64,000 bases of DNA, taken from positions 8,806 through 72,805 of the IMG/VR virus record IMGVR_UViG_3300005842_000001; one strand, 5' to 3'. The position numbers and the translations under genes were made by a program. This document shows, in pieces, positions 8,632-42,955 of the stretch. A model generated the notes under the pieces. That model did no database searches and was not told the origin of the DNA. It was given only the letters and a program-made list of their open reading frames with translations. The DNA comes from a virus. The first letter of the stretch is position 1. Every line of letters begins with the position of its first letter.

Positions 8632-8920
8632 GATCAGTGGTGGTACTAGCGCAGGCAAGACAATGACACCTATGGAATGGGAGACATTCATGAACCGACA
8701 CCAGAGAATCCTACTTGATTGCGGTGTCCAGCACTCAGTAACTGTCAAGCAGCGTGTTGACACTTTCAAGAAGACTGGCCGACTGCCAATCCTCAATCGC
8801 TACACAGAGCCGGGCAGGAACGACCCATGCCCTTGCGAGAGTGGCAAAAAATATAAGCATTGCTGCATTGACAAGAATCGCCGCAACGTGGGAGTAGCCA
8901 ACTTCATCGCTAACCAGTAA
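8624..8920 (+). CDS. SEC-C motif protein
   Basis: [19 protein letters not shown]. Confidence 0.85.
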
Positions 8921-14680: not shown

Positions 14681-17600
14681 ATGAATCAATTACCAATGAA
14701 TCCTGGCAACGACATGACCGACGTTCGCATCAAGTCGGGACTATTCGGCGGCATGGGCGGTATTGGCCGACAGATGGGCCGGGTGATGTACCGCACCGGG
14801 CAGTTCCTCGGTGTCATGCCTTGGGAGACGCCGAGACGTTCACAGATCGGGGTCGATCCCATCGGTGAAGAGTTCATGCTCAATGAGGATCAGCAAGCTA
14901 AGGCCCGCTTGATGGGTCAGAAAATCTATCACGAGTTTGTTGCTGGTCGTTTCAGCTTCTTGTCCAACGACGATGGCAAGAGCAACGAAACGCCTCAGAT
15001 GCGTGAAGAATACTGGAAGTTTGCAGTCACAGAGCCAGCGCTTGACGCTGCTCTGTGGACAAAGATCACCGCAGTCATCGCCAATGAATTGATCATCAAG
15101 CCATCATCGAAGTCAGGCTTTGATCGATACATTGCCGATTGGGTGCATGACTGCATTATCAGATGCAAGGGCGGCTTGCGCAACATCGGTGAGCAGATTC
15201 TCTTTCATGGTCAAGTGTACGGCAATGTGTTATGTGAACCGAAATGGAAGCACGAGCATCGGCAAGTCCACTCAACGATGTTCCCTTATGGTTTCTGGAC
15301 GCTGAAGGATTTCGTTGCAAAGCCACCGGGCGATTACAAATTGGAAATCGATGGCTTCAGAAACATCACCGGCGTCTGGTCGGCAAAAACTGCTGAATGG
15401 TTCGATCCTACTTACTTCGTTTATTGGGCTCACAAGCCGATCTATGGCAACATGGGCGGCACGTCGGGCGTTCGCAGTGTCAGACGAGCTTGCACTCTTC
15501 TAAAGCTGGCCCACAACTATCGAGGCATCTACCTTGAGCAGTTCGGCTTGCCGATGATCAAGGCGACTTACCCCCAGAACGATGACGACTCTCAGCGCAT
15601 CGCAAGAGCAGCGATTCAACACGCTCGATCACTCGGCTACATCTTGATACCAGAAGGTGTTGACGTTGAGGCATTGACACTGGCACAGCGCGGCGAGTCT
15701 GACTATCAGGATGCCATTGACGATTACCGAAAAGAAATCTTCCTTGGGCAGACAGGATCGTACCTGTATGCGATGGAAGGAAGCGTAGGTCATGCTGCTG
15801 GCAATTCAGAGACTCACCGCAGTACGCTTGATCTGTGGGTTGGGTATCTCAGCAAGATTCTGGAAGAGATTCTCAATGATCAGATCATTCCCTGGCTGAT
15901 CACGCTAAATATATACAACGCTGATCCGCCACGAGCTATGATCGGCGGCGTCAACGATGAAGATTTGAAAGCATCACTTGAGGTTGACGATAAATTGATT
16001 AGCTGGGGTGTTGAGCTTGATGAAGATGAACTACGAGATCGCTACCACCGATCAGCGCCAAAGAATGGCAAGGGCATTGGCGGCATGAATCGCTTGATGC
16101 TTGGGATGAACAATGGCATGGGAGCAAACAATGTACAAGGCAACCCGTTCGCTGGGCAAGCCGCTTCATTCCCGTTGCAGAATCAGGGGCAAGCCGCGAA
16201 TAACAATACACCGCCGCAAAGAGATGATCAGACAGTTAAGTTCTCAGCAGATGACGAGGACTTTACACAGCAGCAAAACTATACTTGCGGAACGGCATCA
16301 CTCCGATTCGCCATGAACCATTTTGGTGTCACTCCGCCTGAAGAAAGTGTGCTGTCCCTATTACTTGGTACGACACCAGCACAAGGCACGAATGCAGCCT
16401 CAATCGTGAGGCTGGCAAAGCAGAATGGGCTAGAGGCTGAAGGCCAGTCCAACATGACAATGCTCGAAATGTCAGAGCGTCTGAAGGATGGGGCAGTCGT
16501 ACTGGCTCCCATTCAGAAGTTCGGGTCACCTGAAGAGAAAGCGAAGAATCAGACTGGTCACTGGATCGCTGTAACACGTCTTGATGGTTCAAGCGGTATG
16601 CTTGAATACTTCGATCCAGTTTTGGGCAGTGACAAGCCCTGCTGGGAGTCGTTGCAGACGTTCGCTGCCAACTGGCATGATCGAGATGGTGATGGGAAGA
16701 TGTTGCCCAGGTATGCGATCACGATCAGCGAACCTAAAAAAAAAATGACATTCAGCACCGATGATCTGCAACTTGGATACATCTCGATTCCGCTGCCTGA
16801 GTTCGCTGAAGCAATCCAGAAGGTGCAAAGCGCGATCGATCCTGCTGACTTGATCAAGACTGAGAATGATCATCATATCACGTTGCTTTATGGTTGTGGC
16901 GCTGACAGCTTCGATGACAGCGTGAAGCTCTGCGCTAGCATTGCACCAATCAAGATGACTTTTGGCGGCACATTCACACTGTCGCCAAAAGATGCGGACC
17001 ATGACGTTCTGGCGTTCAAAGTCTATGGCGATGCTCTTGAGAAAGCAAACTACAGTCTCGCCAGCGGGTTAGAAGTCAAGCAAGACTACGATACCTTCCA
17101 GCCCCACGTCAAAATAGGGCGGCTCAAACAAGGGGCAGGGTCAAAATATACTTCACCATCATTTGCGGGCTTCTCAGCATTGCTGGGCGATTCCAAGGTG
17201 GCTGAGTCTGCTCAGTTCAAGGTAAAGGGTGGTGAAGCGTTAAGCCTCCCTTTTGCCGCAGTGTCTGATTTACCAGTTCTGAAGTTCTCAGAAGAGCCAG
17301 CAAGCGATGAAGTTGCCAAGCCGGGTAAAGATGGCGACAAAGCAGATAAGCTGCTACAGAACGTCAAGGAAGACGGTACAGCGATCCTGGCTCGACTTTG
17401 CAAAATGGCATATCGCCGCATGCTTGATAATGGCGTTGGTGGCAGTCAGCTATTCACGATGCAAGAGAGGAACGAACTCACCGAAGCATTCTTGGGCTGT
17501 GTGATCAATGCCAATCTGCTTGGTCGATCATCCACCATCAGCAAGTTCCTGAGAGACCAAGATGAATCGAGAGTTGATCGATTCGCTGATGAAACGCCAT

Positions 17601-18988
17601 TCGATGCGTTTTCATCTGCCCTTGATCCTTTGCGCCCTGAGCTAGCGATTGATTATTTCAAAAATCTGTTCCCGATGATCGGCGTTGATCCAGTGGCGTA
17701 CATTCCGCAGATGAGGCGATATGCCTTCACGTTGGCGGTTGCAACCGAGACAACTCTTCTTGGTAAGGTTCACGATCTACTGACTGATGCACTACACGAA
17801 GGAACGCTTGACACTCAATTCAAGATCGATGATCTGCTAAAGAAGACTGGCGTGGCTCCTGAAAACCCGCAGTACAGTGAAATGGTTTTCAGGACGAACA
17901 TGATGGACGCCTACACGACTGGCACGACAGATCAGGCAAAAGACCCGACCATTGCCGAAGCGTACCCGGTGTGGCGATACGATGGCATCGACGACGAACG
18001 CGCTGGGAAAGATCATCGCCCCAAGTTCGGGAAGTATTATCCATCGTCAGCAGAGTTTGCTGATGTTCGTGGTGATCGTCCTTATAACTGTGTTCTCCCT
18101 GGGCAGATGACACAGGGAAGAATCAATGGGGCATTAAAAGCCCACTATTCTGGCGAAGCGGTCGAGATTTATAGTGACAGTGGTGATATTATTTCCCTGA
18201 CCGTCAACCATCCCGTATTGACCGATAGAGGCTTTATTCGTGCTGGCGAAGTGAAGGAAGGAGATTATCTTGTCAGCTATTCCGGGGAACATCAAATCCC
18301 TGTTCTTGGTGAAGACTATCAATACTTTCCAACCTTGATCGAAGATGTATTTGAGACGATTAGTGTAGTTAAAGGTAGGTCGGCTAGGGCTTCTGCCCCA
18401 GTTTCCCTTTTCAAGCTCTATGGCGATGAGTTGTTCCTTGAAAGCAAGATCGACGTTGTAGGCTCCTATCGGGAATTGCTGTTCAATGGTGTGCCCCATG
18501 ATTCTGAGCGTGTTCGCAACTCTATCCTCTCTGGGGCTACGGTGAAGCTGCATGGCATACCACGAAGCAGCACGCTTCAATTTAACAGCCATGCTGTCAG
18601 TCATCCCTCTTCTAGCGGCGTGGGCCTTAGCGACTTGCTTGGCTCTGATGCGTTTGCTCATCAAACTCCATTTAGTCTTTTCTGCTTCGGATCGGCCTCG
18701 CACCTTTATTCCCAATTTGACGAATTGCTTTCTAAGACAACTTCTGTCGATGTTCAGTTTGTCGGCAAGAGCCTTCATGGAGGCACCGGCAAGGTAGCGT
18801 TTAGCAAGGCGAGAAAGATTAGGAATTTCCATTACGATGGTCCTGTGTTTGATTGCTCAACTGATGTTGGATATTTTATAGTAAATAACATCTTCATTTC
18901 AAATTGCCGCTGCTGTCCTACGATGATCTACAAGACAACATGGCAACAGTTGCAGGATCAAGGTAAGAGCGTAGAGACAAGCTGGTAG
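14681..18988 (+). CDS. fusion: Mu gp29/DUF935-like portal + C39-like Cys peptidase + 2H phosphoesterase + MuF head morphogenesis domain with intein
   Basis: Portal to about aa 470 (EQFGLP, IFLGQT, ILNDQII); peptidase QQQNYTCG...GHW...YFDP; 2H motifs HITL and PHVK; MuF VFRTNMMDAY..G, WRYDGIDD.R..DH, PYN/CRC. Confidence 0.85.
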   Translation: MNQLPMNPGNDMTDVRIKSGLFGGMGGIGRQMGRVMYRTGQFLGVMPWETPRRSQIGVDPIGEEFMLNEDQQAKARLMGQKIYHEFVAGRFSFLSNDDGKSNETPQMREEYWKFAVTEPALDAALWTKITAVIANELIIKPSSKSGFDRYIADWVHDCIIRCKGGLRNIGEQILFHGQVYGNVLCEPKWKHEHRQVHSTMFPYGFWTLKDFVAKPPGDYKLEIDGFRNITGVWSAKTAEWFDPTYFVYWAHKPIYGNMGGTSGVRSVRRACTLLKLAHNYRGIYLEQFGLPMIKATYPQNDDDSQRIARAAIQHARSLGYILIPEGVDVEALTLAQRGESDYQDAIDDYRKEIFLGQTGSYLYAMEGSVGHAAGNSETHRSTLDLWVGYLSKILEEILNDQIIPWLITLNIYNADPPRAMIGGVNDEDLKASLEVDDKLISWGVELDEDELRDRYHRSAPKNGKGIGGMNRLMLGMNNGMGANNVQGNPFAGQAASFPLQNQGQAANNNTPPQRDDQTVKFSADDEDFTQQQNYTCGTASLRFAMNHFGVTPPEESVLSLLLGTTPAQGTNAASIVRLAKQNGLEAEGQSNMTMLEMSERLKDGAVVLAPIQKFGSPEEKAKNQTGHWIAVTRLDGSSGMLEYFDPVLGSDKPCWESLQTFAANWHDRDGDGKMLPRYAITISEPKKKMTFSTDDLQLGYISIPLPEFAEAIQKVQSAIDPADLIKTENDHHITLLYGCGADSFDDSVKLCASIAPIKMTFGGTFTLSPKDADHDVLAFKVYGDALEKANYSLASGLEVKQDYDTFQPHVKIGRLKQGAGSKYTSPSFAGFSALLGDSKVAESAQFKVKGGEALSLPFAAVSDLPVLKFSEEPASDEVAKPGKDGDKADKLLQNVKEDGTAILARLCKMAYRRMLDNGVGGSQLFTMQERNELTEAFLGCVINANLLGRSSTISKFLRDQDESRVDRFADETPFDAFSSALDPLRPELAIDYFKNLFPMIGVDPVAYIPQMRRYAFTLAVATETTLLGKVHDLLTDALHEGTLDTQFKIDDLLKKTGVAPENPQYSEMVFRTNMMDAYTTGTTDQAKDPTIAEAYPVWRYDGIDDERAGKDHRPKFGKYYPSSAEFADVRGDRPYNCVLPGQMTQGRINGALKAHYSGEAVEIYSDSGDIISLTVNHPVLTDRGFIRAGEVKEGDYLVSYSGEHQIPVLGEDYQYFPTLIEDVFETISVVKGRSARASAPVSLFKLYGDELFLESKIDVVGSYRELLFNGVPHDSERVRNSILSGATVKLHGIPRSSTLQFNSHAVSHPSSSGVGLSDLLGSDAFAHQTPFSLFCFGSASHLYSQFDELLSKTTSVDVQFVGKSLHGGTGKVAFSKARKIRNFHYDGPVFDCSTDVGYFIVNNIFISNCRCCPTMIYKTTWQQLQDQGKSVETSW
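18089..18904 (+). mobile_element. intein (272 aa) inserted in the MuF PYN|CRC motif
   Basis: Starts CVLPG; block B LTVNHPVLT; block F/G YDGPVFD...YFIVNNIFISN; Cys at +1. Confidence 0.85.
18134..18832 (-). CDS. HTH + Vsr/DUF559-like PD-(D/E)xK endonuclease nested antisense within the intein
   Basis: RYLAGASMKALADKLNIDRSCLRK HTH; SPRE..V...L...G....QFPIGAYNVDLAF....IAIELE...W...R.KYIFDQGWKVLIV. Confidence 0.8.
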   Translation of the reverse strand: MEIPNLSRLAKRYLAGASMKALADKLNIDRSCLRKQFVKLGIKVRGRSEAEKTKWSLMSKRIRAKQVAKAHAARRGMTDSMAVKLKRAASWYAMQLHRSPREDRVANTLRIMGHTIEQQFPIGAYNVDLAFKEQLIAIELEKGNWGRSPSRPTFNYTNRLKYIFDQGWKVLIVFTKNRDLMFPGIADKIISFLHFASTNKASIGQYGMVDGQGNNITTVTINLDRFARIVGF

Positions 18989-19857: not shown

Positions 19858-19877
19858 ATTATGAAAGGTAGAAGTTG

Positions 19878-22800
19878 ATGCGAACTATTACGCAGTCAAT
19901 TGTGCGCAGGAGAGCGCAAAGTGCGATTCTAGGTCAACGTGGCTCCCTCACGCCGCCATTCTATGCCGGTGCTGTTTCAATCGCACCGCCACTGTCGTCA
20001 AGGTATCTTGCCTACCACGAAGGCTCCCTGGGCGTTCTCGATGGTAGCGGCAACCCGCAAACTACTGCGTTCGGCATCGTCGGCACATGGCAGGACCAGA
20101 GCGTCAACGGCAACCATCGCGTTCAGTCCAACAATGCTCTCCGCCCATTTGCCCGTACAGCCAGCACGCCTGGACTCAAAGTCGTACCAGCAGTCTACCC
20201 GTTCACAGATAACGCTAGAGCGCTTCCTTGTTCGACAATCATCATCGACAAACGAAACACGTCGTTCTATGCCATCGTCGACACCGATTATCAAGTTGCC
20301 TTCAATAATGCAGAATCAAGGGTACTTTGGTCAAGCAGTGCTGGCACGTTGCAATATGATTTAGCATCCTTGAGCTTTGGAAGGCTTCAATGGGTAGATG
20401 CCGGGGGAACGCACGATACTGGACTACGACTCTCGGCAGGATGGAATCTCGTTGGGGTGCAACTACTTGCAACAGCGGTCGTGGTCTGGGTCAACGATCA
20501 AAGCGTTTCTTATGCTGCTCTCAGTGCCGGCACGGTCACAGGCGACATACTGTTTAACAATGCTGGCGGGGTATCAAGTTGGAAGGGAAGTTGCCCGGTG
20601 GCTGTTCTGCACACTCCCGCCATTACTGCTGGCGAAAAGTCTTCCTTGATTGATCCGTGGGCCAGAAGCCGAAGAGTGAATTACACGACATCAACCACCC
20701 CGCTCTTGATCGGTTTCGGCAACTCGCTGGCTTCTGGATTATCCGCAAAAGATTGGCAGGGCTACCTCTGGCAGTGCGATTACGGCGACGCGCTTTACCA
20801 CAATGTTGCATTTGCCGGCAAGCAGTGGACTGATGCGAACGATCCACTGAATCTAAATGGCGTCAATCTTAATGACATTAACAGGCTTGGCATCTGTCTC
20901 GGTGATCTTGGGACAAATGATATATATTTAGGAGTCCCGGCAGCCACAGCGTTCGCCAATCGTTCTACTGTGATTGCCAGATTGCGTGCTGCTGGTCTGT
21001 TTTTCATTGAGCTATTACTCACCCCTTCTTTGGGGATTGTGAATGCAGGGCATGAGGCAGAGAGACTTGCCTATAATGCGTTGGTGCTGGCGGAAACTGA
21101 TAGGGTTCACAGTAACTATAAGATCGGCATTCCAGCTAATCTTGCTGACTATAGCAACCTTGATTATTACACTGTTGATGGTGTGCATTACACCAGGCTG
21201 GGGCATGCTCAGTATCCGCCTGAGTTCCAGTCTGCATTGAATTCAGTGCTTGCGTTGAGAAGCCAGGTCAGTACGCTGCAAGCTAAGTATTATTTCAATG
21301 GCGATTATTCTGACAGCACCATTTACACCAGAGACTTGACAGTCATCACAGGAAGTCCGTCTTTCAGTGCTGGGATTGGCGGACAACAGCGACTCACTCT
21401 CGTCAAGGCATCCAGTCAAAGCGTCTCCCACATTGTTGCCAGTAGTGGAAACAATCCGGGTGTCTTTGACTGGTATCCAATGACGATTGCGTTTTGGTTG
21501 ACTACGACCAATTCAACAAGTGGTACGATCATAGCCAACAGTGACAATGCCGGCGTTGGCTTCAATTGCTATCTCGATACGCATGGCCAGATTCATTTCG
21601 ACTTGGTTCGGCAAGCAGCGGCAGGCAGTGTCGCATCAGGGCCAACGTCATTTGCAGTTAATGACGGCGTGACACGGTTTGTTGCTATTGTCATTGATTC
21701 AGCCGGAGTGAGGATTTATGTCTCTCCTACCTCCAACCCTGCCCTTGCAGGACTGGAAACATCGACGGCATGGACTGGCACTCCTGGGAAGTTTGTGCCG
21801 TCCAGCCGGGCATTGCGTATAGGCGTGGATCAAGCCGGAACTACTTTCACCGACATGTCGATGCAGACGTGTTACTTCTTTGCGGAATCTAAGTCACTGG
21901 TAGACCTGCAAGCACTTCAGGCGATCCCCGGAACAGCAGCGCCAGAACCACCAGTTTTGACCACTGGTGTTTACACGACAGGAAGTATGCCGGTCACTGC
22001 ACTCCCACCGCTGAACCACAACAGTACAATTACGCTCTACAAGTTCTACATAGCTTTGCACAGCGGGGGAGCGCATCCTGATGATTTCACCCTTGCTGGC
22101 ACTTCTGTCACACCCAATTTCACATACACAGTTACTGACGGTCAGGACTACCACATCAGATGTACGGCAGTAAATGCAATTGGCGAAAGTGCCGATAGCA
22201 ATGTTGTGACGTTTACCGCTACCGCTGTTTCGTCAGTGGCCGGAGCTACAGTGATATTCGATGCCTGGGTTGGCCCTTACACTGACGATGGAGTAACGCT
22301 CTGCACTGCCAGCGGCGACAGGATTAAGCAACTCACGAATCAAGCCGTGGCTAACTACGGATCGCAGCCGACCGCCAACCTCCGGGGCGTCTACAAGATG
22401 TACCGGCAGAACGGGCGGCCAGCGATTCAGTTCAGCGGTGGCCAGTTCCTGAAGTTCTTGAACGCGATCAACACCTGGCCTTGCACGGTTGCTATCGCCG
22501 GGTATTGGCGGGACTTTACCGGCGTCAATGGTCGCATCTTGGGACTAGGCGGCCCGCAGAGCTTGTTCAGTACCGGCACCAACTGGACAGCCTACGCCAT
22601 ACCAGGCGGGTTTACTCAAGACCTGGGGGCCAGCGCATCAGTTCCTAAAGTAGCTGTCATCCGCTTCGATCATTCAGCGGCCTGGAAAGTTTGTTTCAAT
22701 GGTGTGCTTGGCGGCAACCTCCAATTTAACGCTGCGGCATCCGGCAATCTTGCTATCGGTGCTCACGGTGACGATGGCGGGGAATGGGCTGATGTTGAGT

Positions 22801-22892
22801 TTTATCGCTTCAAATTCTGGCCCAGCATTCTCAATGATGCCAATGTGCTGCTGGCCGCTGCCGAAATGAACAGCCTGCTGGCGATTTACTAA
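19878..22892 (+). CDS. multidomain virion-surface protein: LamG/ConA-like + SGNH esterase + LamG + FN3 + LamG-like
   Basis: GFGNSLASG, LGTND, DGVHY (SGNH); FN3-like YHIRCTAVNAIGESADSN; N- and C-terminal ends resemble each other. Confidence 0.7.
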   Translation: MRTITQSIVRRRAQSAILGQRGSLTPPFYAGAVSIAPPLSSRYLAYHEGSLGVLDGSGNPQTTAFGIVGTWQDQSVNGNHRVQSNNALRPFARTASTPGLKVVPAVYPFTDNARALPCSTIIIDKRNTSFYAIVDTDYQVAFNNAESRVLWSSSAGTLQYDLASLSFGRLQWVDAGGTHDTGLRLSAGWNLVGVQLLATAVVVWVNDQSVSYAALSAGTVTGDILFNNAGGVSSWKGSCPVAVLHTPAITAGEKSSLIDPWARSRRVNYTTSTTPLLIGFGNSLASGLSAKDWQGYLWQCDYGDALYHNVAFAGKQWTDANDPLNLNGVNLNDINRLGICLGDLGTNDIYLGVPAATAFANRSTVIARLRAAGLFFIELLLTPSLGIVNAGHEAERLAYNALVLAETDRVHSNYKIGIPANLADYSNLDYYTVDGVHYTRLGHAQYPPEFQSALNSVLALRSQVSTLQAKYYFNGDYSDSTIYTRDLTVITGSPSFSAGIGGQQRLTLVKASSQSVSHIVASSGNNPGVFDWYPMTIAFWLTTTNSTSGTIIANSDNAGVGFNCYLDTHGQIHFDLVRQAAAGSVASGPTSFAVNDGVTRFVAIVIDSAGVRIYVSPTSNPALAGLETSTAWTGTPGKFVPSSRALRIGVDQAGTTFTDMSMQTCYFFAESKSLVDLQALQAIPGTAAPEPPVLTTGVYTTGSMPVTALPPLNHNSTITLYKFYIALHSGGAHPDDFTLAGTSVTPNFTYTVTDGQDYHIRCTAVNAIGESADSNVVTFTATAVSSVAGATVIFDAWVGPYTDDGVTLCTASGDRIKQLTNQAVANYGSQPTANLRGVYKMYRQNGRPAIQFSGGQFLKFLNAINTWPCTVAIAGYWRDFTGVNGRILGLGGPQSLFSTGTNWTAYAIPGGFTQDLGASASVPKVAVIRFDHSAAWKVCFNGVLGGNLQFNAAASGNLAIGAHGDDGGEWADVEFYRFKFWPSILNDANVLLAAAEMNSLLAIY

Positions 22893-22901
22893 GGAACCGT
22901 C

Positions 22902-25208
22902 ATGAAAACATTACTTTCCTTGCTGCTGATTCTTTTCAGTAGCACCGTTGCAGCCCAATCCCCCATCGCCTTATCGACGAGCGATCCCAAGTTTGCGCCA
23001 CACTCAGAGATCATACCAAAACCGATAGCAGCGCTGGCGTTTGGCACTAGAGGCCCAGGCTATGCTAACGGTTCACGTCCTGCTGGCCGATTCGATGTTG
23101 CGTATGCTCTCGTCGATGAACAAAGCAAGCTGTCGCCACTGTCAAAGCCAGTAACAATTGCATCATCGTCATCCGACTGGGATATTGTGGTGTCGACGCC
23201 GGTGCTTGATCTGTGGACACGCGCGATCGGAACGATGTGGGTATACAGAGCAACAGGAACAGCCGAATGGAAGTCTCTCGGTTGCAATCGTAACTGTGTA
23301 GTGCCATGGGCAGCGACTCGACCATTTATGCCGCTTGTAGGTTGGGATCATTCGTTGGGTGGCTTTCAACTCTTCTCAACACAAAACTTCTGGCCGACAT
23401 TCAGTGATGTTTACTGGAAACAAACATCGACGCTGGCACAACCACCACCGCCATCGGTTCGTTTGCTTTCATGCCCGAACATTGCTTTAGAAGCTGCCTA
23501 TTCGTGGGCATGCAATGAAGGAGAGACGCCGTTATCAGACGTAACAAGTATCGCTGCTGTTCCTGGCAATCCTGCAACGATTCATGCACCATGTCAGTTG
23601 TACCGCAACATTATACCACCACAAGGCGCTCTCGGTTCTTACGTCTATTTGAGAGTGCCGGGTGGTCAGTGGCATCGTCAAAAATCCCATCAATCAGCAG
23701 ACAGCTATCTATGGCCGATTGACTCAAATCAATTACCGATCAATGAATATGTTGAAACAGGCGTCAAGCCCAGCGGCATCGTCGGCAAGTCATGGCTTAG
23801 TTCAATCCATCTGGCGATGCGTGATTGGCGACGAGACGTGATCATTGACACCGATCAGACTATTTGCTGCCCGGTAATTTCAGCTTATGATGGGCCAAGT
23901 TGGGTATATGACCCACGCAATCAGCAGATCGCTTTTGGTGTGAATGCTTTTGCTTACCCCAACGAAGGATGGACTCTATCAATTGATGGTGTCACAAGCG
24001 GCTACCTTCGCCCTACGTCCGGCTGGCAAACTTGGCAGCAAGTCGCTGATACTGCATTTGGCCCCGGTAATGTTGAGCTTCGATATGGTAGCGGCTTTGG
24101 TGGCGTGGTGATCGTTTTCACTGGCAAGTATGCAGCGACAGACATGACGAATCGCATCAAGACTGATTTCACGAAACTTTATCAGATCAACAACAACGAT
24201 GCTAGCAAGCCGCTAATGGATACATCAGTACCGCCAAAGCCGATTCCTTTTGCAGTTCCTATAGTCGATTCCTATACTCAGTCAGCGCGTAGTTGGTACA
24301 TGTCAGCAGGTGGTCAGAAGTTCAATCGAACGATTGCAACAGGAAATGGCGGTGGGTGGGTTCTCAGTGACACAGCGACGACGCCAGAAGGCAAGTCGAG
24401 CTATCCTGGTGACTGGCCTTTGTGGGTAGAGAACAGCCAGCGAACTCGACTGATCGGTTGCAAGATGACACGGAACCAGTCCAATTGTGGAATAGCTTTT
24501 ATAGATCATTCAGGCGGCGGTGCTTTTTCATTCACAGCGAAAGATTGTGCTTGCTCTGCTGGCGTAGGAAATAATGGCAACACTTATGGAGTTCGATGTA
24601 CCTGGACAAGCAGAGGGCCAGCTTGGAACAACCATTCAGCGTCTGAGCCATATTTTGAAAACTGTTCTTTCCAAGCGAAACACTGCATAGTCTGTGAAGG
24701 TGGCCAGTCAGTCAACTGGTTATTCAACACTACCTACGGCGCTGGTGATGGCACCATTGAATCTTCAATCGTCACACAAGCCAACTCAGGGGCTATGTCT
24801 TTCAAAGGCAGAACAAACGTCGATAACTCACGCACCATCGGCGCTATGACATGGGCAGGAAAGGTTGACATTGAAGGCATTTGGCTCGATCAGGGTGTAC
24901 CGTGTTGGTTTACGATCACCGGCAACACGTTCCCAGCCATGTCGATCAATGGTACCAAGATCAATCAGTGGCGTGATTGGCTACATGTCATCGAAGCGCC
25001 GACAGGCAGCATAGGCTATCCGGTCAATTTGACGTTGAGCAATCTCGATTCTCAGTTCAATGGCCAGCCGGTAACAATGCTTGCATCGACTCGTGACATG
25101 CTTACCGTCACTCAGAAAGACCCGGTGAACTTGCTTGCAAATCTTGTGAAGACGGGACTTGTCACGATTCCAGTACCTGTTAAAAAGCAAATGCTACGAA
25201 GCAGATGA
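22902..25208 (+). CDS. large protein with predicted signal peptide and possible beta-helix C-terminal half
   Basis: MKTLLSLLLILFSSTVAAQ; FENCSF-type strands. Confidence 0.6.
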   Translation: MKTLLSLLLILFSSTVAAQSPIALSTSDPKFAPHSEIIPKPIAALAFGTRGPGYANGSRPAGRFDVAYALVDEQSKLSPLSKPVTIASSSSDWDIVVSTPVLDLWTRAIGTMWVYRATGTAEWKSLGCNRNCVVPWAATRPFMPLVGWDHSLGGFQLFSTQNFWPTFSDVYWKQTSTLAQPPPPSVRLLSCPNIALEAAYSWACNEGETPLSDVTSIAAVPGNPATIHAPCQLYRNIIPPQGALGSYVYLRVPGGQWHRQKSHQSADSYLWPIDSNQLPINEYVETGVKPSGIVGKSWLSSIHLAMRDWRRDVIIDTDQTICCPVISAYDGPSWVYDPRNQQIAFGVNAFAYPNEGWTLSIDGVTSGYLRPTSGWQTWQQVADTAFGPGNVELRYGSGFGGVVIVFTGKYAATDMTNRIKTDFTKLYQINNNDASKPLMDTSVPPKPIPFAVPIVDSYTQSARSWYMSAGGQKFNRTIATGNGGGWVLSDTATTPEGKSSYPGDWPLWVENSQRTRLIGCKMTRNQSNCGIAFIDHSGGGAFSFTAKDCACSAGVGNNGNTYGVRCTWTSRGPAWNNHSASEPYFENCSFQAKHCIVCEGGQSVNWLFNTTYGAGDGTIESSIVTQANSGAMSFKGRTNVDNSRTIGAMTWAGKVDIEGIWLDQGVPCWFTITGNTFPAMSINGTKINQWRDWLHVIEAPTGSIGYPVNLTLSNLDSQFNGQPVTMLASTRDMLTVTQKDPVNLLANLVKTGLVTIPVPVKKQMLRSR

Positions 25209-27475: not shown

Positions 27476-29023
27476 ATGCCAGCGGTTTTGGACAACGAAA
27501 AAATAAAAAATCAGGAAATTGTCAAGCCCTCAAAGATGTACCGGGTTGAGCGTGTTCGTCTATTTGAATCAGGCAACCACAAGGGCATCGTCTACGAAAA
27601 AAAAGACATTGATGATGCTGTTAATAATTTCAACGCATTCAGCACACCAGAAGTACACAAGCTGGAAGTTCCAATTGTTCTCGGACACGAGGAAGCGCAA
27701 GTCCTACTTGATATGACTGGCCACCCTGCGGCGGGCTGGATCGAATCAGTTTGGGCCGAATTAGAGGGCATTGAAGAGCCTTTCATCGACGACAATGGCA
27801 ATGTGAAATGGCGTCAACGTGAAGCCTATTTTCTGTACGGGAACTTTTACAAAGTCCCTGAAGATGTAGCACAGTGGATCGTGGATGGAGCATATAGATA
27901 TTTATCTTGCGAGTTCAGCAAACGAGAGAAGCCACCCGCTGGCGTCCCGGCGATTGGCCCGATGCTGCTGCGCGTTGCGATTCTTGGTGCTACACAGCCT
28001 CACGTCAAAAGTTTAGGACCACTGCCCTCCCCGATTCCTGATTACTCTGTAAACTTGTTTTCAGACAGTGATTCAGCAGCCTGTGACATTGTAACTTTGC
28101 TACTCCCCATCAAGGGAGCAACTTGCTTCAGTGAGGATAAAGCCATGAACGATGCGATGATGAACGCTCTTGCTGCTCAAGGTATCCCTCCTGAAGCCTG
28201 TAAAGTTTTGGCTTCTATCGATCCCACCAAGTATGCTTCAGTCGGCAAGGCTTTCTCTGAAGCTGGCAATCCTCAACCGCCTCAACCCGGTGGTCAGGCT
28301 GGCTCTTTTGATCGTGCTGCTACGATTGAAAAGCTCAGCGCATTGCCCAACGCTGATCGTGACGCCATCGGCAAGATGAGTGATGATGAACTCAAGTCGA
28401 TGTACAGCAAGTCCAAGTTTGCTGATGGCGGTGGCAACAATGCTCCTGGCAACAATGACGTTGCCAATCCTGGCACCGGTGGCAATGGCACTCAGAAGCC
28501 ATCTTTTGCCGCTGATGACAAGAAGGACGATCAGAAGTTTTCAGTGATCAACCAAAAGACCAAGGAACTCGAAAGCGAAATGATCGAGTTCCGGAAGTGG
28601 CGTCAAAGCACTGAGGGCAAGTTGAACGCTGAAGCGAAACAACGTGCTGATGCCGAATACGCTGCAACGTGCAAAGAGATTGATAAGTTTTGCACCGATC
28701 AAGTTGCTGCTTTCCGCATTACTGCTCGTGAGGCTCCGCTTCACGCTAATGCAATGAAGGAGATGGCAAAACTGCCAACCTTCAAGACGGATGTGGTCAA
28801 GTTCAGCGACGACAAGGGCAAAGAAGTTACTGGTAATCCTGTTGAGGCGTACAAGGCGACAATTCTTGCCCGTAGTGTGATGAAGTTTTCTCAAGATCGA
28901 ATTGTCTCACCTGCCCCAGGTGGCAAGGAACTCACCCGCGCTCAACGCATGATCGCCGGTTCACGAATCGGCAAAGATATTGCCGAGATGAACCGTAAGA
29001 AGGCAGCGACTGCTACCAAGTAA
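27476..29023 (+). CDS. Mu-like prohead protease/scaffold
   Basis: PIVLGH, PAAGWI, GAYRYLSCEF, LLRVAILGATQPHVK; helical C-terminal scaffold region. Confidence 0.85.
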   Translation: MPAVLDNEKIKNQEIVKPSKMYRVERVRLFESGNHKGIVYEKKDIDDAVNNFNAFSTPEVHKLEVPIVLGHEEAQVLLDMTGHPAAGWIESVWAELEGIEEPFIDDNGNVKWRQREAYFLYGNFYKVPEDVAQWIVDGAYRYLSCEFSKREKPPAGVPAIGPMLLRVAILGATQPHVKSLGPLPSPIPDYSVNLFSDSDSAACDIVTLLLPIKGATCFSEDKAMNDAMMNALAAQGIPPEACKVLASIDPTKYASVGKAFSEAGNPQPPQPGGQAGSFDRAATIEKLSALPNADRDAIGKMSDDELKSMYSKSKFADGGGNNAPGNNDVANPGTGGNGTQKPSFAADDKKDDQKFSVINQKTKELESEMIEFRKWRQSTEGKLNAEAKQRADAEYAATCKEIDKFCTDQVAAFRITAREAPLHANAMKEMAKLPTFKTDVVKFSDDKGKEVTGNPVEAYKATILARSVMKFSQDRIVSPAPGGKELTRAQRMIAGSRIGKDIAEMNRKKAATATK

Positions 29024-29103: not shown

Positions 29104-29829
29104 ATGGCAACTTCAGCACTCAAAACATTCAGCCCCCGAATCACCCCAGCTTGGCCCGCTGGCAAGGTGCCTGTCGCCACACAGCCTGTTAAACTTGCTG
29201 CCAGCACTTCATACACTGCGGGTGCGATTCTTGGCGAATTGCTCGGCACGAATGAAGTGCAAATCCTGACTCCTGGCGGCACGATTTCAGGTGGAACCTG
29301 GACGATCACCTATAGCGGTCAAACGACTTCCGCTTTGGCTTACAACGCAACAGCAGCCACCATCCAGACAGCCCTTGAAGCACTGTCGAATGTTGGTGCT
29401 GGCAACATTGCTGTTACCGGTGGGCCTATCTCTTCTGGTGTTGTCACTCTGACATTCCAGAACGATCTGGGTTATCAGAACGTGGCAGCAGTGACCGTGG
29501 GTACTGGCTCACTCACTGGATCATCGCCAACTCTCACGCCTTCGACGACTACCCAAGGCGCTACGGGTACAGATGGCGGCTACGATACTTACAGTGCTTC
29601 ATCTGTGACTGGCCTTCAAACTCCGAAGGCGATCTTGGCTGACACTGTGACCACTGACTCTAACGGCAAGGTCATCAATGATGACGGAACCACGTCAACG
29701 CATGCAACAGCATACTTGACTGGCTCTTTCAGGTCTGATGACGTGCCGACGATCACCGATGCGATCTTGACTGCCAAGGGTGGCCGATGGCTTGTCGGCA
29801 ACTCTGCTGGCGGCATCTTCCAGTGGTAA
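29104..29829 (+). CDS. head decoration protein with inserted NEVQ-type domain
   Basis: YTAGAILG...PKAILAD...AYLTGSF; lies just before the major capsid gene. Confidence 0.7.
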   Translation: MATSALKTFSPRITPAWPAGKVPVATQPVKLAASTSYTAGAILGELLGTNEVQILTPGGTISGGTWTITYSGQTTSALAYNATAATIQTALEALSNVGAGNIAVTGGPISSGVVTLTFQNDLGYQNVAAVTVGTGSLTGSSPTLTPSTTTQGATGTDGGYDTYSASSVTGLQTPKAILADTVTTDSNGKVINDDGTTSTHATAYLTGSFRSDDVPTITDAILTAKGGRWLVGNSAGGIFQW

Positions 29830-29907: not shown

Positions 29908-30960
29908 ATGGCATACGACATTCCCGATCTGGTAGCGTTGCAGGAAGTCGAGCAAGAAATCCTGCCCGTTCTCACGATGAATGATCCTTTGTTTGATCTG
30001 TTCCCTATCGACAGCGAAAATGCTTCGATGATCGAATGGGAACAGAAGGACAACTTTGCTGGCCTGATGGCTGTCCGTGGCATCAATGGCAACCCTGGCC
30101 GAGTCCAGAAAGTGGGTTCAAAGACCTACTCAATGGAACCCGGCTACTACGGTGGCTTCACTCCGCTTGACGAGAAGGAACTCACCAAGCGAAGATCGCT
30201 CGGCACGTTTGATGAGCCGATCAACATTGATGATCTGATCACAGAAGCTCTTGAGCATCTGATGACTCAGCAGATCAACCGACAGCGGAAGATCATCGCT
30301 GATCTGATCACCACTGGCACGTTCAGCGTCACGAACGAATTGACTGGCTCAATCGATCACACTGACAGCTTCACGCTGCCAGCTTCGACCGCTTCGATTC
30401 CTTGGACGACTGTTGCAACTGCAACTCCTTTGCTCAACATTCGTGCTGCCATTGCTACCCGCATTGGTTACAGCTACGATTTTGGCAAAGAAGCCATCAT
30501 GTTGATGAATCAGAACACCTACAACAATTTCATCAACAACGCCAACAGCGCTGATCTTGCTGGCAAGCGGGCTTCGTATGGTCAGACTTATCAGAGTGTC
30601 GGTAATCTCAACGACTTGCTGGCGGCTGACAACCTGCCTCAGATTCTGGTCTATAACGAATCTTACTTGGCTACCCCAAGCTCAACGCCTACGCTGTTGA
30701 TTCCTGATGGTAAGGTTGTGATCTGCGGCAAGCGAAAGACTGGGCGCTCTCTCGGTAACTTCACAGTGACGAGGAACGCCAATCACCCTGACATGGCGGC
30801 TGCACCTTACTTGTGGATCGTTGACCCGTTCCAAGCTGCCTCTGGCAACATCCTTCCTTCGTCTGGGTCGATTCCTCGAACCATCGAAGTTCACCGGGGC
30901 TTCAATGGTGGCGTCAAGTTGCCCTTCCCTGGTGGCATCTATGTCTTGACCGCCTACTAA
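29908..30960 (+). CDS. major capsid protein (lambda gpE-like)
   Basis: 350 aa; DLFP, IEWE, W.TVATATPL..I, LIPDGKV; gene position. Confidence 0.85.
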   Translation: MAYDIPDLVALQEVEQEILPVLTMNDPLFDLFPIDSENASMIEWEQKDNFAGLMAVRGINGNPGRVQKVGSKTYSMEPGYYGGFTPLDEKELTKRRSLGTFDEPINIDDLITEALEHLMTQQINRQRKIIADLITTGTFSVTNELTGSIDHTDSFTLPASTASIPWTTVATATPLLNIRAAIATRIGYSYDFGKEAIMLMNQNTYNNFINNANSADLAGKRASYGQTYQSVGNLNDLLAADNLPQILVYNESYLATPSSTPTLLIPDGKVVICGKRKTGRSLGNFTVTRNANHPDMAAAPYLWIVDPFQAASGNILPSSGSIPRTIEVHRGFNGGVKLPFPGGIYVLTAY

Positions 30961-42865: not shown

Positions 42866-42871
42866 AAACTT

Positions 42872-42943
42872 CGCGGGGTGGACCAGCGGTAGGTCGTCGG
42901 GTTCATAACCCGAAGGTCGTGAGTTCGATTCTCACCCCCGCAA
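42872..42943 (+). tRNA. initiator tRNA-fMet(CAT), CCA not encoded
   Basis: CGCGGGG...TCGGG-TTCATAA-CCCGA...GTGAG-TTCGATT-CTCAC-CCCCGCA-A; C1:A72 mismatch and three G-C pairs in the anticodon stem. Confidence 0.92.
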
Positions 42944-42955
42944 TTTTGGTGAGCC

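Follow-up and report, generated by a model that had tools for sequence, protein, structure and literature searches.

How might a phage portal protein that carries enzymes in the same chain be taken apart into free proteins? The question is raised by a 64-kb window of a 72,805-bp single-contig phage genome (IMG/VR record IMGVR_UViG_3300005842_000001, positions 8,806 to 72,805). The window encodes a polyvalent portal fusion protein of 1435 amino acids (aa) (P0001; 14681–18988) and a 515-aa protease–scaffold protein (P0002; 27476–29023); all window coordinates given here lie on the plus strand. An earlier sequence-only reading had proposed that a short motif, F-[SA]-acidic, marks each domain border of the fusion, recurs in the protease–scaffold protein and is the cleavage signal of the prohead protease. 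From sequence comparison we conclude that the motif is probably the recognition or cut signal of this phage's head protease. Its link to the protease–scaffold protein is borne out by family comparison, by domain borders and by precedents in other phages, but some instances lie in predicted folded elements.

Translation and searches of Pfam and PHROGs showed, in order along P0001, a Mu-type portal, a C39-like peptidase, a 2H-like phosphoesterase, a helical segment and a MuF core split by an intein. It is polyvalent in that Portal_Mu, C39, 2H-like, MuF and intein parts occupy one polypeptide. The portal (Portal_Mu, residues 118–455, E 1e-38) is followed by a piece (522–691) that exceeds three Pfam cut-offs: Peptidase_C39 (26.8 bits, cut-off 22), C39_2 (26.7, cut-off 24) and DUF3335 (27.2, cut-off 25). 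The C39 match begins at residue 529, and the piece carries a Q530/C536/H627/D645 pattern, in which we take C536 and H627 to be the catalytic residues. The 2H-like piece (692–869) matched 2_5_RNA_ligase2 under the Pfam cut-off (E 3.3e-4) and phrog_755 (6e-4), and the helical segment matched no family. The MuF core matched phrog_220 at 945–1121 (E 4e-17), with the Pfam MuF envelope starting at 1029. The peptidase, 2H and MuF domains named by the sequence-only reading are therefore all recovered, the 2H match remaining under its cut-off. A single close homologue was found, P0006 (1195 aa, on another contig), which keeps the C39 pattern. Because it has the same fusion, without the intein, the fusion of P0001 is not an assembly artefact.

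Re-translation placed the four proposed sites of P0001 exactly where they had been read. Site 1, F521-S-A-D-D (TVKFSADDE; 16241–16255), closes the low-complexity portal tail and precedes the C39 match by 8 aa. Site 2, F691-S-T-D-D (KMTFSTDDL; 16751–16765), lies between the C39 and 2H-like domains, and site 3, F869-S-E-E (VLKFSEEPA; 17285–17296), past the 2H-like domain and ahead of a charged low-complexity stretch. Site 4, F968-A-D-E (VDRFADETP; 17582–17593), precedes the Pfam MuF core by 61 aa but falls within the phrog_220 match. Two further matches had been overlooked, F708 (LPEFAEAIQ) in the 2H domain and F1126 (SAEFADVRG) in the MuF core.

Linkers in P0001 were defined by gaps between domain matches and by divergence from P0006. 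F521, F691 and F869 fall in the gaps 465–528, 666–696 and 818–944 (~222 aa in all), where ~0.4 matches would be expected at the background rate. That rate is 1.68 per 1000 aa, from 36 matches in the 21,483 aa of the other 111 greedy-called open reading frames (ORFs) of the 72,805-bp genome. The claim that the motif marks each domain border thus stands for these three sites but not for F968, which precedes the MuF core relative to the Pfam envelope yet lies inside the phrog_220 match. At sites 1–4, P0006 reads SFADD, QFSDD, KFSDD and RFTDE; it keeps the F1126 match and not F708. Sites 1 and 2 are located where P0001 and P0006 diverge most, in two stretches of their alignment that also contain indels. 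The surroundings of site 1 diverge most (blocks 461–540, 7–13 of 19–20 residues identical, 33 gap columns), and the block of site 2 (681–700) has 9/20 identities and a 3-aa indel. At site 3 the flanks are conserved too.

For counting, the motif was written as F[SA](x)?[DE] and compared with composition-preserving shuffles (n = 3000). P0002 has 7 matches against a shuffle mean of 0.91, and 7 was reached in 0/3000 shuffles; if Cys is accepted as well, the count rises to 8 (shuffle mean 0.98). P0001 has 6 against 2.48, a count reached in 120/3000 shuffles. Enrichment, one of the checks that had been suggested for the motif, is therefore clear in P0002 but marginal in P0001 taken alone. The case for the polyprotein rests on the position of its sites.

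P0002 matched phrog_976, 'head maturation protease' (E 5.5e-22, residues 17–472), and no Pfam family at E ≤ 0.01. A single gene separates it from the downstream gene for the major capsid protein (Phage_cap_E). In an AlphaFold2 (AF2) model, residues 20–193 have a predicted local distance difference test score (pLDDT) above 90 and are followed by helices joined by low-confidence segments. Structural comparison with VIA-align gave varicella-zoster virus protease at Z 9.2 (root-mean-square deviation 2.9, 116 residues aligned), T4 gp21 (5jbl) at Z 8.4 (3.5, 115 aligned) and human cytomegalovirus protease at Z 7.0; the next, unrelated row was helical, at Z 5.8. Foldseek against the PDB likewise ranked herpesvirus proteases top, none at E ≤ 0.001. 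In BFVD there were 127 matches at E ≤ 0.001, the named top rows being mostly labelled prohead protease, peptidase or scaffolding protein. Across 50 members of the family, H71 and S144 do not vary. On the model, the N-terminal domain (~17–190) is a capsid maturation protease of assemblin fold, fused to a scaffold part (~224–515). With the phrog_976 match and the invariant H71/S144, this upholds the earlier identification of the protein as a prohead protease/scaffold.

Relationship to Mu gpI was also assessed. A profile alignment (hhalign) to the Mu I sequence was weak (E 1.9e-4, probability 47%), with H71 and S144 opposite the Mu His and Ser. P0002 did not match Pfam PF10123 (Mu-like_Pro), and one of 20 relatives did so at 24.4 bits, under the cut-off of 25.2. 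A distant relationship of the P0002 family to Mu gpI is plausible.

The eight motif sites read in P0002 were likewise confirmed by re-translation: F195, F218, F260 and F315 (nucleotides (nt) 28058, 28127, 28253 and 28418) and F344, F405 (F-C-T-D), F443 and F471 (nt 28505, 28688, 28802 and 28886), together spanning 28058–28900. In the AF2 model F195, F218 and F344 are inside segments of pLDDT < 50, and F260, F315 and F471 are at the edges of such segments. Two close homologues of P0002 were found (P0004 and P0005, 66% and 40% identity). Both keep F-S or F-C at positions 195, 218, 344, 405, 443 and 471 while neighbouring residues vary.

The motif recurs throughout the wider family. An hmmsearch of 1.84 billion representatives retrieved 1380 relatives of P0002 at E ≤ 0.001, and counts were made on P0002 and the best 150 of them (n = 151). 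These hold 689 matches against 131 expected; the relatives are not independent, so such counts overstate the number of evolutionary events. A de novo tripeptide scan of the same set put FSE top (389 against 12.6 expected), with FCE (59 against 1.8) and FAE (166 against 26.6) also in excess and KFS high too. An alignment was built from the 111 members of 430–620 aa, 40/151 having been dropped for length. In six of its columns the pattern is [FYHM]-[SAGC]-E, and of the three positions Glu varies least. Outside these columns there are 227 strict matches in 57 columns, against 53.8 expected for whole proteins. Substitutions stay within a chemical class (F/Y/H/M, then S/A/G/C, then E/D), which fits a specificity pocket. 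The motif is, by its recurrence, clearly a hallmark of the whole protease–scaffold family.

A further instance stands ahead of the protease domain, which the motif therefore flanks on either side. The first protease strand could be placed by pattern in 105/151 members, 24 of which have more than 45 aa N-terminal to it. In 18/24 of these, F[SAC][DE] occurs within 25 aa upstream of the strand, usually as R-F-S-E-G-G ~ten residues ahead; two of the six exceptions show F-R-E or F-N-E there. Long extensions with H-A-E-R-F-S-E-G-G are seen in P0020, P0024, P0027, P0055, P0056, P0068, P0090, P0104, P0108, P0143 and others. The four extensions searched (P0056, P0090, P0108 and P0143) matched no Pfam family.

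A distant relative is present in a cultured phage: gp151 of cyanophage S-TIM5 (L040:5947–7773), annotated as a head maturation protease, aligns with a third of P0017, a member of the family, at 25.7% identity. It has 3 strict matches against 0.63 expected, including N-F-S-E-T-G-K, which is like the family's K-F-S-E-x-G-K, a likeness seen unaligned. S-TIM5 could serve as an experimental model.

The instance at F218 coincides with a second signal. A candidate internal start (28133–28147) consists of GAGGA within the S219-E220-D221 codons, a 7-nt spacer and the ATG of M224, a residue at least 90% conserved. Eleven related loci have F[SA]E...M.R; ten of them use GAG for the Glu, and in nine the next codon is GTN. 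Because GAGGA or GAGGT, of which the Glu codon forms part, sits 7 nt upstream of a conserved ATG, a nested scaffold protein likely starts at M224, as in the Mu I/Z arrangement.

This overlap gives some footing to the idea that the motif is mostly no protein signal, arising instead from chance, from the composition of acidic Ser/Ala-rich linkers or from nucleotide constraints such as a ribosome-binding site at F218-S-E. The GAGG(T)-N7-ATG pattern does overlap the motif at column 218, the enrichment in P0001 is marginal, and the motif as first described is loose, with its acid at +2 or +3. However, a ribosome-binding site accounts for one of the six conserved columns and needs neither Phe nor Ser. 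Chance and composition are also at odds with a P0002 count that no shuffle reached, with the family excess and with FSE emerging top from an unprompted scan. We therefore rate an absence of protein-level signal as very improbable.

Related loci were then compared. A tblastn search of P0002 against 50,697 phage records found nothing, and a viral contig scan with P0002 gave 0 relatives. Alignment-based locus searches yielded 37 loci in all, one among viral contigs, two among genome contigs and 34 among metagenome contigs, and context was analysed in the 13 of at least 12 kb. In L012 and L016 the greedy ORF caller kept a minus-strand ORF, leaving both proteases outside the protease class; the L012 protease match is part-covered by a 309-aa minus-strand ORF, which was counted among the other ORFs. 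Strict matches were densest in the 11 protease ORFs, at 6.65 per 1000 aa; the 11 portal/MuF/C39 fusion ORFs had 2.04 and the 258 remaining ORFs 0.84. In the fusion ORFs 18/20 motif matches fall outside Pfam envelopes, which make up 60% of the length, although a place outside an envelope does not equal a linker.

In several of these fusions the motif lies near a domain border. In L005, L026, L016 and L028, F-A-E or F-S-E stands between the low-complexity tail of the portal and the domain that follows. In L035, Y-A-E precedes a histidine-phosphatase domain by ~10 aa and F-A-E lies past that domain. In L039, F-A-E lies right behind MuF and H-A-E ~9 aa ahead of C39, and in L023 F-A-E lies 7 aa ahead of C39. 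Comparable to F968, F-A-[DE] occurs ~36–71 aa ahead of the Pfam MuF start in L005, L026, L035, L003 and L039.

The cargo itself differs between loci. L035:5178–8672 encodes a portal–histidine phosphatase–MuF fusion, L039:3458–6046 a MuF–C39 fusion, and L023:5223–6980 an unidentified domain followed by C39. L004:8878–13626 encodes a 1582-aa protein with the protease–scaffold as its N-terminal part.

Such variety bears on the suggestion that the motif is an uncut linear motif for docking or assembly, joining scaffold to capsid or portal, targeting proteins to the capsid or engaging an exosite of the protease. Scaffold proteins must bind capsid and portal. The most conserved instance, V-x-K-F-S-E-x-G-K in column 443, falls in a predicted beta-hairpin (pLDDT ~80), and F405 is in a long helix (352–411), so that both look structural rather than like exposed cut sites. 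A binding motif would, however, not be expected directly upstream of domains as unrelated as C39, His-phosphatase, 2H and the protease, and the cargo is already targeted to the capsid through its fusion to the portal. Moreover, six of the eight P0002 sites are in or beside disordered segments, and the class-preserving degeneracy resembles protease subsites. On balance docking is an unlikely explanation of the motif as a whole, though some instances, above all the hairpin one at F443, may have such a role.

A second enzyme in the system could also do the cutting. The embedded C39-like cysteine peptidase might process the polyprotein in cis, with the border motifs unrelated to cleavage. C39 enzymes cut after Gly-Gly, and a K-I-G-G past the portal domain is conserved between P0001 and P0006. 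Gly-Gly pairs occur in P0001 at 467–468, 850–851 and 920–921 and are at most candidate sites. The C39 piece passes its three Pfam cut-offs with Cys and His present, and self-processing by built-in peptidases has been proposed for polyvalent proteins in passages of Iyer et al. 2017 (PMC5512222). Yet no Gly-Gly occurs at the border between C39 and 2H in P0001. The motif follows the protease–scaffold family rather than C39: it is densest in the protease/scaffold protein itself, and it stands between domains in the fusions of L005, L026, L035, L016 and L028, which have no Pfam C39 match. Processing by C39 in place of the head protease is accordingly rated as distinctly improbable.

Several points weigh against the motif as the signal of the head protease, beyond the Pfam matches of the C39 piece and the limits already attached to the P0001 count, the family counts and the Pfam envelopes. 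The motif is short. Six homologous columns supply much of the family signal. In column 218 the Shine-Dalgarno-like GAGG(T)-N7-ATG signal confounds the conservation, and the N-terminal RFSEGG element may have been inherited once, within a single subfamily. Strict matches number 0 in the L026 protease and 1 in the L025 protease ORF, and the portal fusions of L004 and L025 have 0. In P0001, F708, F968 and F1126 lie within homology-defined folded domains, and in P0002, F405 and F443 occupy the helix and the hairpin described above. It follows that not every instance is an accessible site. An AF2 model of P0001 residues 440–1000, built from a 2-sequence alignment, reached a pLDDT of 29.9 and was unusable for judging linkers. 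Finally, a profile alignment of the family to P2 gpO gave a probability of 1.6% over 21 columns, with a single-sequence target.

Weighing these points, we still favour the motif as a probable signal of the head protease, and we infer from it that the motif is cut, that the P0002 protease cuts it and where the scissile bond may lie. Inside the procapsid, the protease would trim itself off the scaffold part at F195 and/or F218 and would chop the scaffold at the remaining P0002 sites, so that fragments could leave the capsid. In established structures, portals point their C-terminus into the capsid, and the appended enzymes would therefore share a compartment with the protease. On each of the twelve portal subunits, the protease would cut this inward-facing extension at F521, F691, F869 and perhaps F968. 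This would release the C39-like peptidase, the 2H-like phosphoesterase and, after intein splicing, the MuF protein as internal or ejected proteins. Two places for the bond can be argued. A cut after the acid is favoured because Glu is the most invariant position in the family and the fold is gp21-like. A cut after Phe, as by P2 gpO, is favoured because F-[SAC] is the only element common to all 12 sites read in the two proteins, the acid lying at +2 or +3.

A Phe-directed cut recalls staphylococcal phage 80alpha, in which the host protease Prp trims the capsid and scaffold proteins after Phe. Phe followed by Ala or Ser resembles the Prp site, and a host enzyme might likewise read the motif here. 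But this phage has its own protease with invariant His and Ser, and the motif co-occurs with that phage protease family across diverse metagenomic lineages. We consider cleavage by a host protease the least probable of the explanations weighed here.

Two of the predicted products have features of their own. The intein (272 aa; 18089–18904, residues 1137–1408) splits the conserved 'N-C-R-C' element of MuF. It begins with Cys1 and ends with Asn, with Cys at +1, giving a predicted spliced junction RGDRPYN/CRCCPTM; P0006 has an unbroken RPYNCRC at this position. The intein piece matched Intein_splicing (Pfam) under the cut-off (7.7e-7). The 2H-like piece (16754–17287) has a faint Pfam match (E 0.15) to Acb1, a protein directed against the cyclic-oligonucleotide-based antiphage signalling system (CBASS). 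Its second H-x-T/S motif is H809-V-K in P0001 and H-A-T in P0006. From these features it could be a packaged enzyme degrading cyclic nucleotides, or be partly degenerate. A phmmer search of the 2H piece against PDB sequences returned nothing useful, and PADLOC matched none of the C39, 2H and helical pieces, nor either of two large ORFs nearby.

These ORFs lie between the portal fusion and protease genes, an unusual place in a Mu-type head module. The first (19875–22892; 1005 aa) has GDSL-lipase-like and Laminin_G_3 matches, and the second (22902–25208; 768 aa) matched no family; each has one motif match. Between the protease/scaffold and capsid genes lies a 241-aa ORF (29104–29829), residues 42–148 of which match Ig-like parts of tail and sheath PHROGs and which is possibly a head decoration protein. 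The major capsid protein (Phage_cap_E by Pfam and PHROGs; 29908–30960) contains no motif match and, judged by this, is probably not processed. A single tRNA gene, tRNA-Met (anticodon CAT), was found at 42871–42944.

The variety of cargo allows a broader proposal, which we put forward tentatively. The portal may act as a twelve-copy cargo carrier with swappable enzyme cassettes bracketed by an [FYHM]-[SAGC]-[ED] cut signal. The cassettes would be C39 and 2H here, C39 also in L039 and L023, and a histidine phosphatase in L035. Recognition of the signal would fall to the protease–scaffold family, which has over 1000 members and was not characterised before. If so, head maturation would free a fixed dose of effectors close to the channel of the portal, from which they could be ejected together with the DNA. 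Sequence would then allow the proteins of the mature virion, and those it ejects, to be predicted across this phage group, and annotations of polyvalent proteins could be turned into predicted mature internal or ejected enzymes with a copy number (twelve per virion). The signal would also make head maturation directly accessible to mutational tests, and would provide a natural targeting-and-release module for packaging foreign proteins, as has been done with the T4 system.

Short recognition motifs of prohead proteases are already known in T4-like and giant phages. In the literature searched, as listings, abstract openings and text passages, no description of an F-[SA]-E signal was found, nor one of the specificity of this protease–scaffold family, a plausible relative of Mu gpI. 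What is new here is a candidate specificity for a large, mostly metagenomic protease–scaffold family and, with it, a proposed way of dismantling portal-fused polyvalent proteins.

As in Mu, the head module contains Portal_Mu, MuF and Phage_cap_E, and there is likely a nested scaffold start like that of Mu I/Z. Unlike here, portal and MuF are separate genes in Mu, without inserted enzymes. Inspection by eye of Mu gpI, gp29 and gp30 showed no repeated F-S-E, and no F-[SAC]-[DE] in Mu I. The last 124 aa of the Mu portal gp29 are missing from the virion structure determined by cryo-electron microscopy, which passages of PMC11915804 attribute to protease I. F412 of Mu gp29 (L002:555–2093; GDEAVF/TIQPV) lies 24 residues beyond the last modelled residue (512 − 124 = 388). 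Speculatively, and by analogy, its Phe-Thr resembles the P2 gpO sites.

In P2 gpO, too, a serine protease at the N-terminus and a scaffold at the C-terminus make up a single protein. Its substrates are gpO itself, the capsid protein and presumably the portal (PMC7552001), and it takes the first 31 aa off gpN, as passages of that source describe. In the P2 record this cut falls after Phe31 (SKKF/TVEPS), giving Phe, then a small residue, then Glu (SKKF/TVE). The gpO protease domain ends at residue 141, likewise Phe (EYLEF/CRT). These gpO cut sites serve as an analogy only, because the profile match to gpO is not significant. In contrast to P0002, gpO has no repeated F-S-E by eye. Processing of the capsid protein takes place in P2, but its counterpart here is free of the motif. 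For P2 gpQ, the cut site is reported to lie after Phe26.

T4 gp21 shares the assemblin fold of the P0002 protease (Z 8.4). In passages of PMC9026906 it cuts after L/I-X-E, fragments the scaffold and trims the packaged enzyme Alt, and in passages of PMC10052503 SPN3US gp245 cuts after A-X-E. As in these descriptions, the motif of this phage spans three residues, ends in an acid and has a hydrophobic or small residue before it. As described for T4, with packaged enzymes such as Alt among the carriers, the motif occurs many times in the scaffold or core and also in proteins predicted to be packaged. Unlike T4 gp21, phiKZ gp175 and SPN3US gp245, the present family has F/Y/H/M two residues before the acid and S/A/G/C in the middle; this phage also admits Asp as the acid, which can lie one position farther from the Phe. 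The protease is also fused to its own scaffold, its candidate substrates include a portal fusion rather than N-terminal propeptides, and it has no sequence family detectably in common with gp21.

The closest precedent for the cargo is provided by the polyvalent proteins of Iyer, Burroughs, Anand, de Souza and Aravind (2017; PMC5512222). Passages of that work propose processing by built-in peptidase domains, including assemblin-like ones, and define no cleavage motif. As in the proteins described there, virion-structural domains and enzymes share one polypeptide in P0001 and are predicted to be packaged and delivered together. Unlike those, the processor here is a candidate separate prohead protease with a definable border signal.

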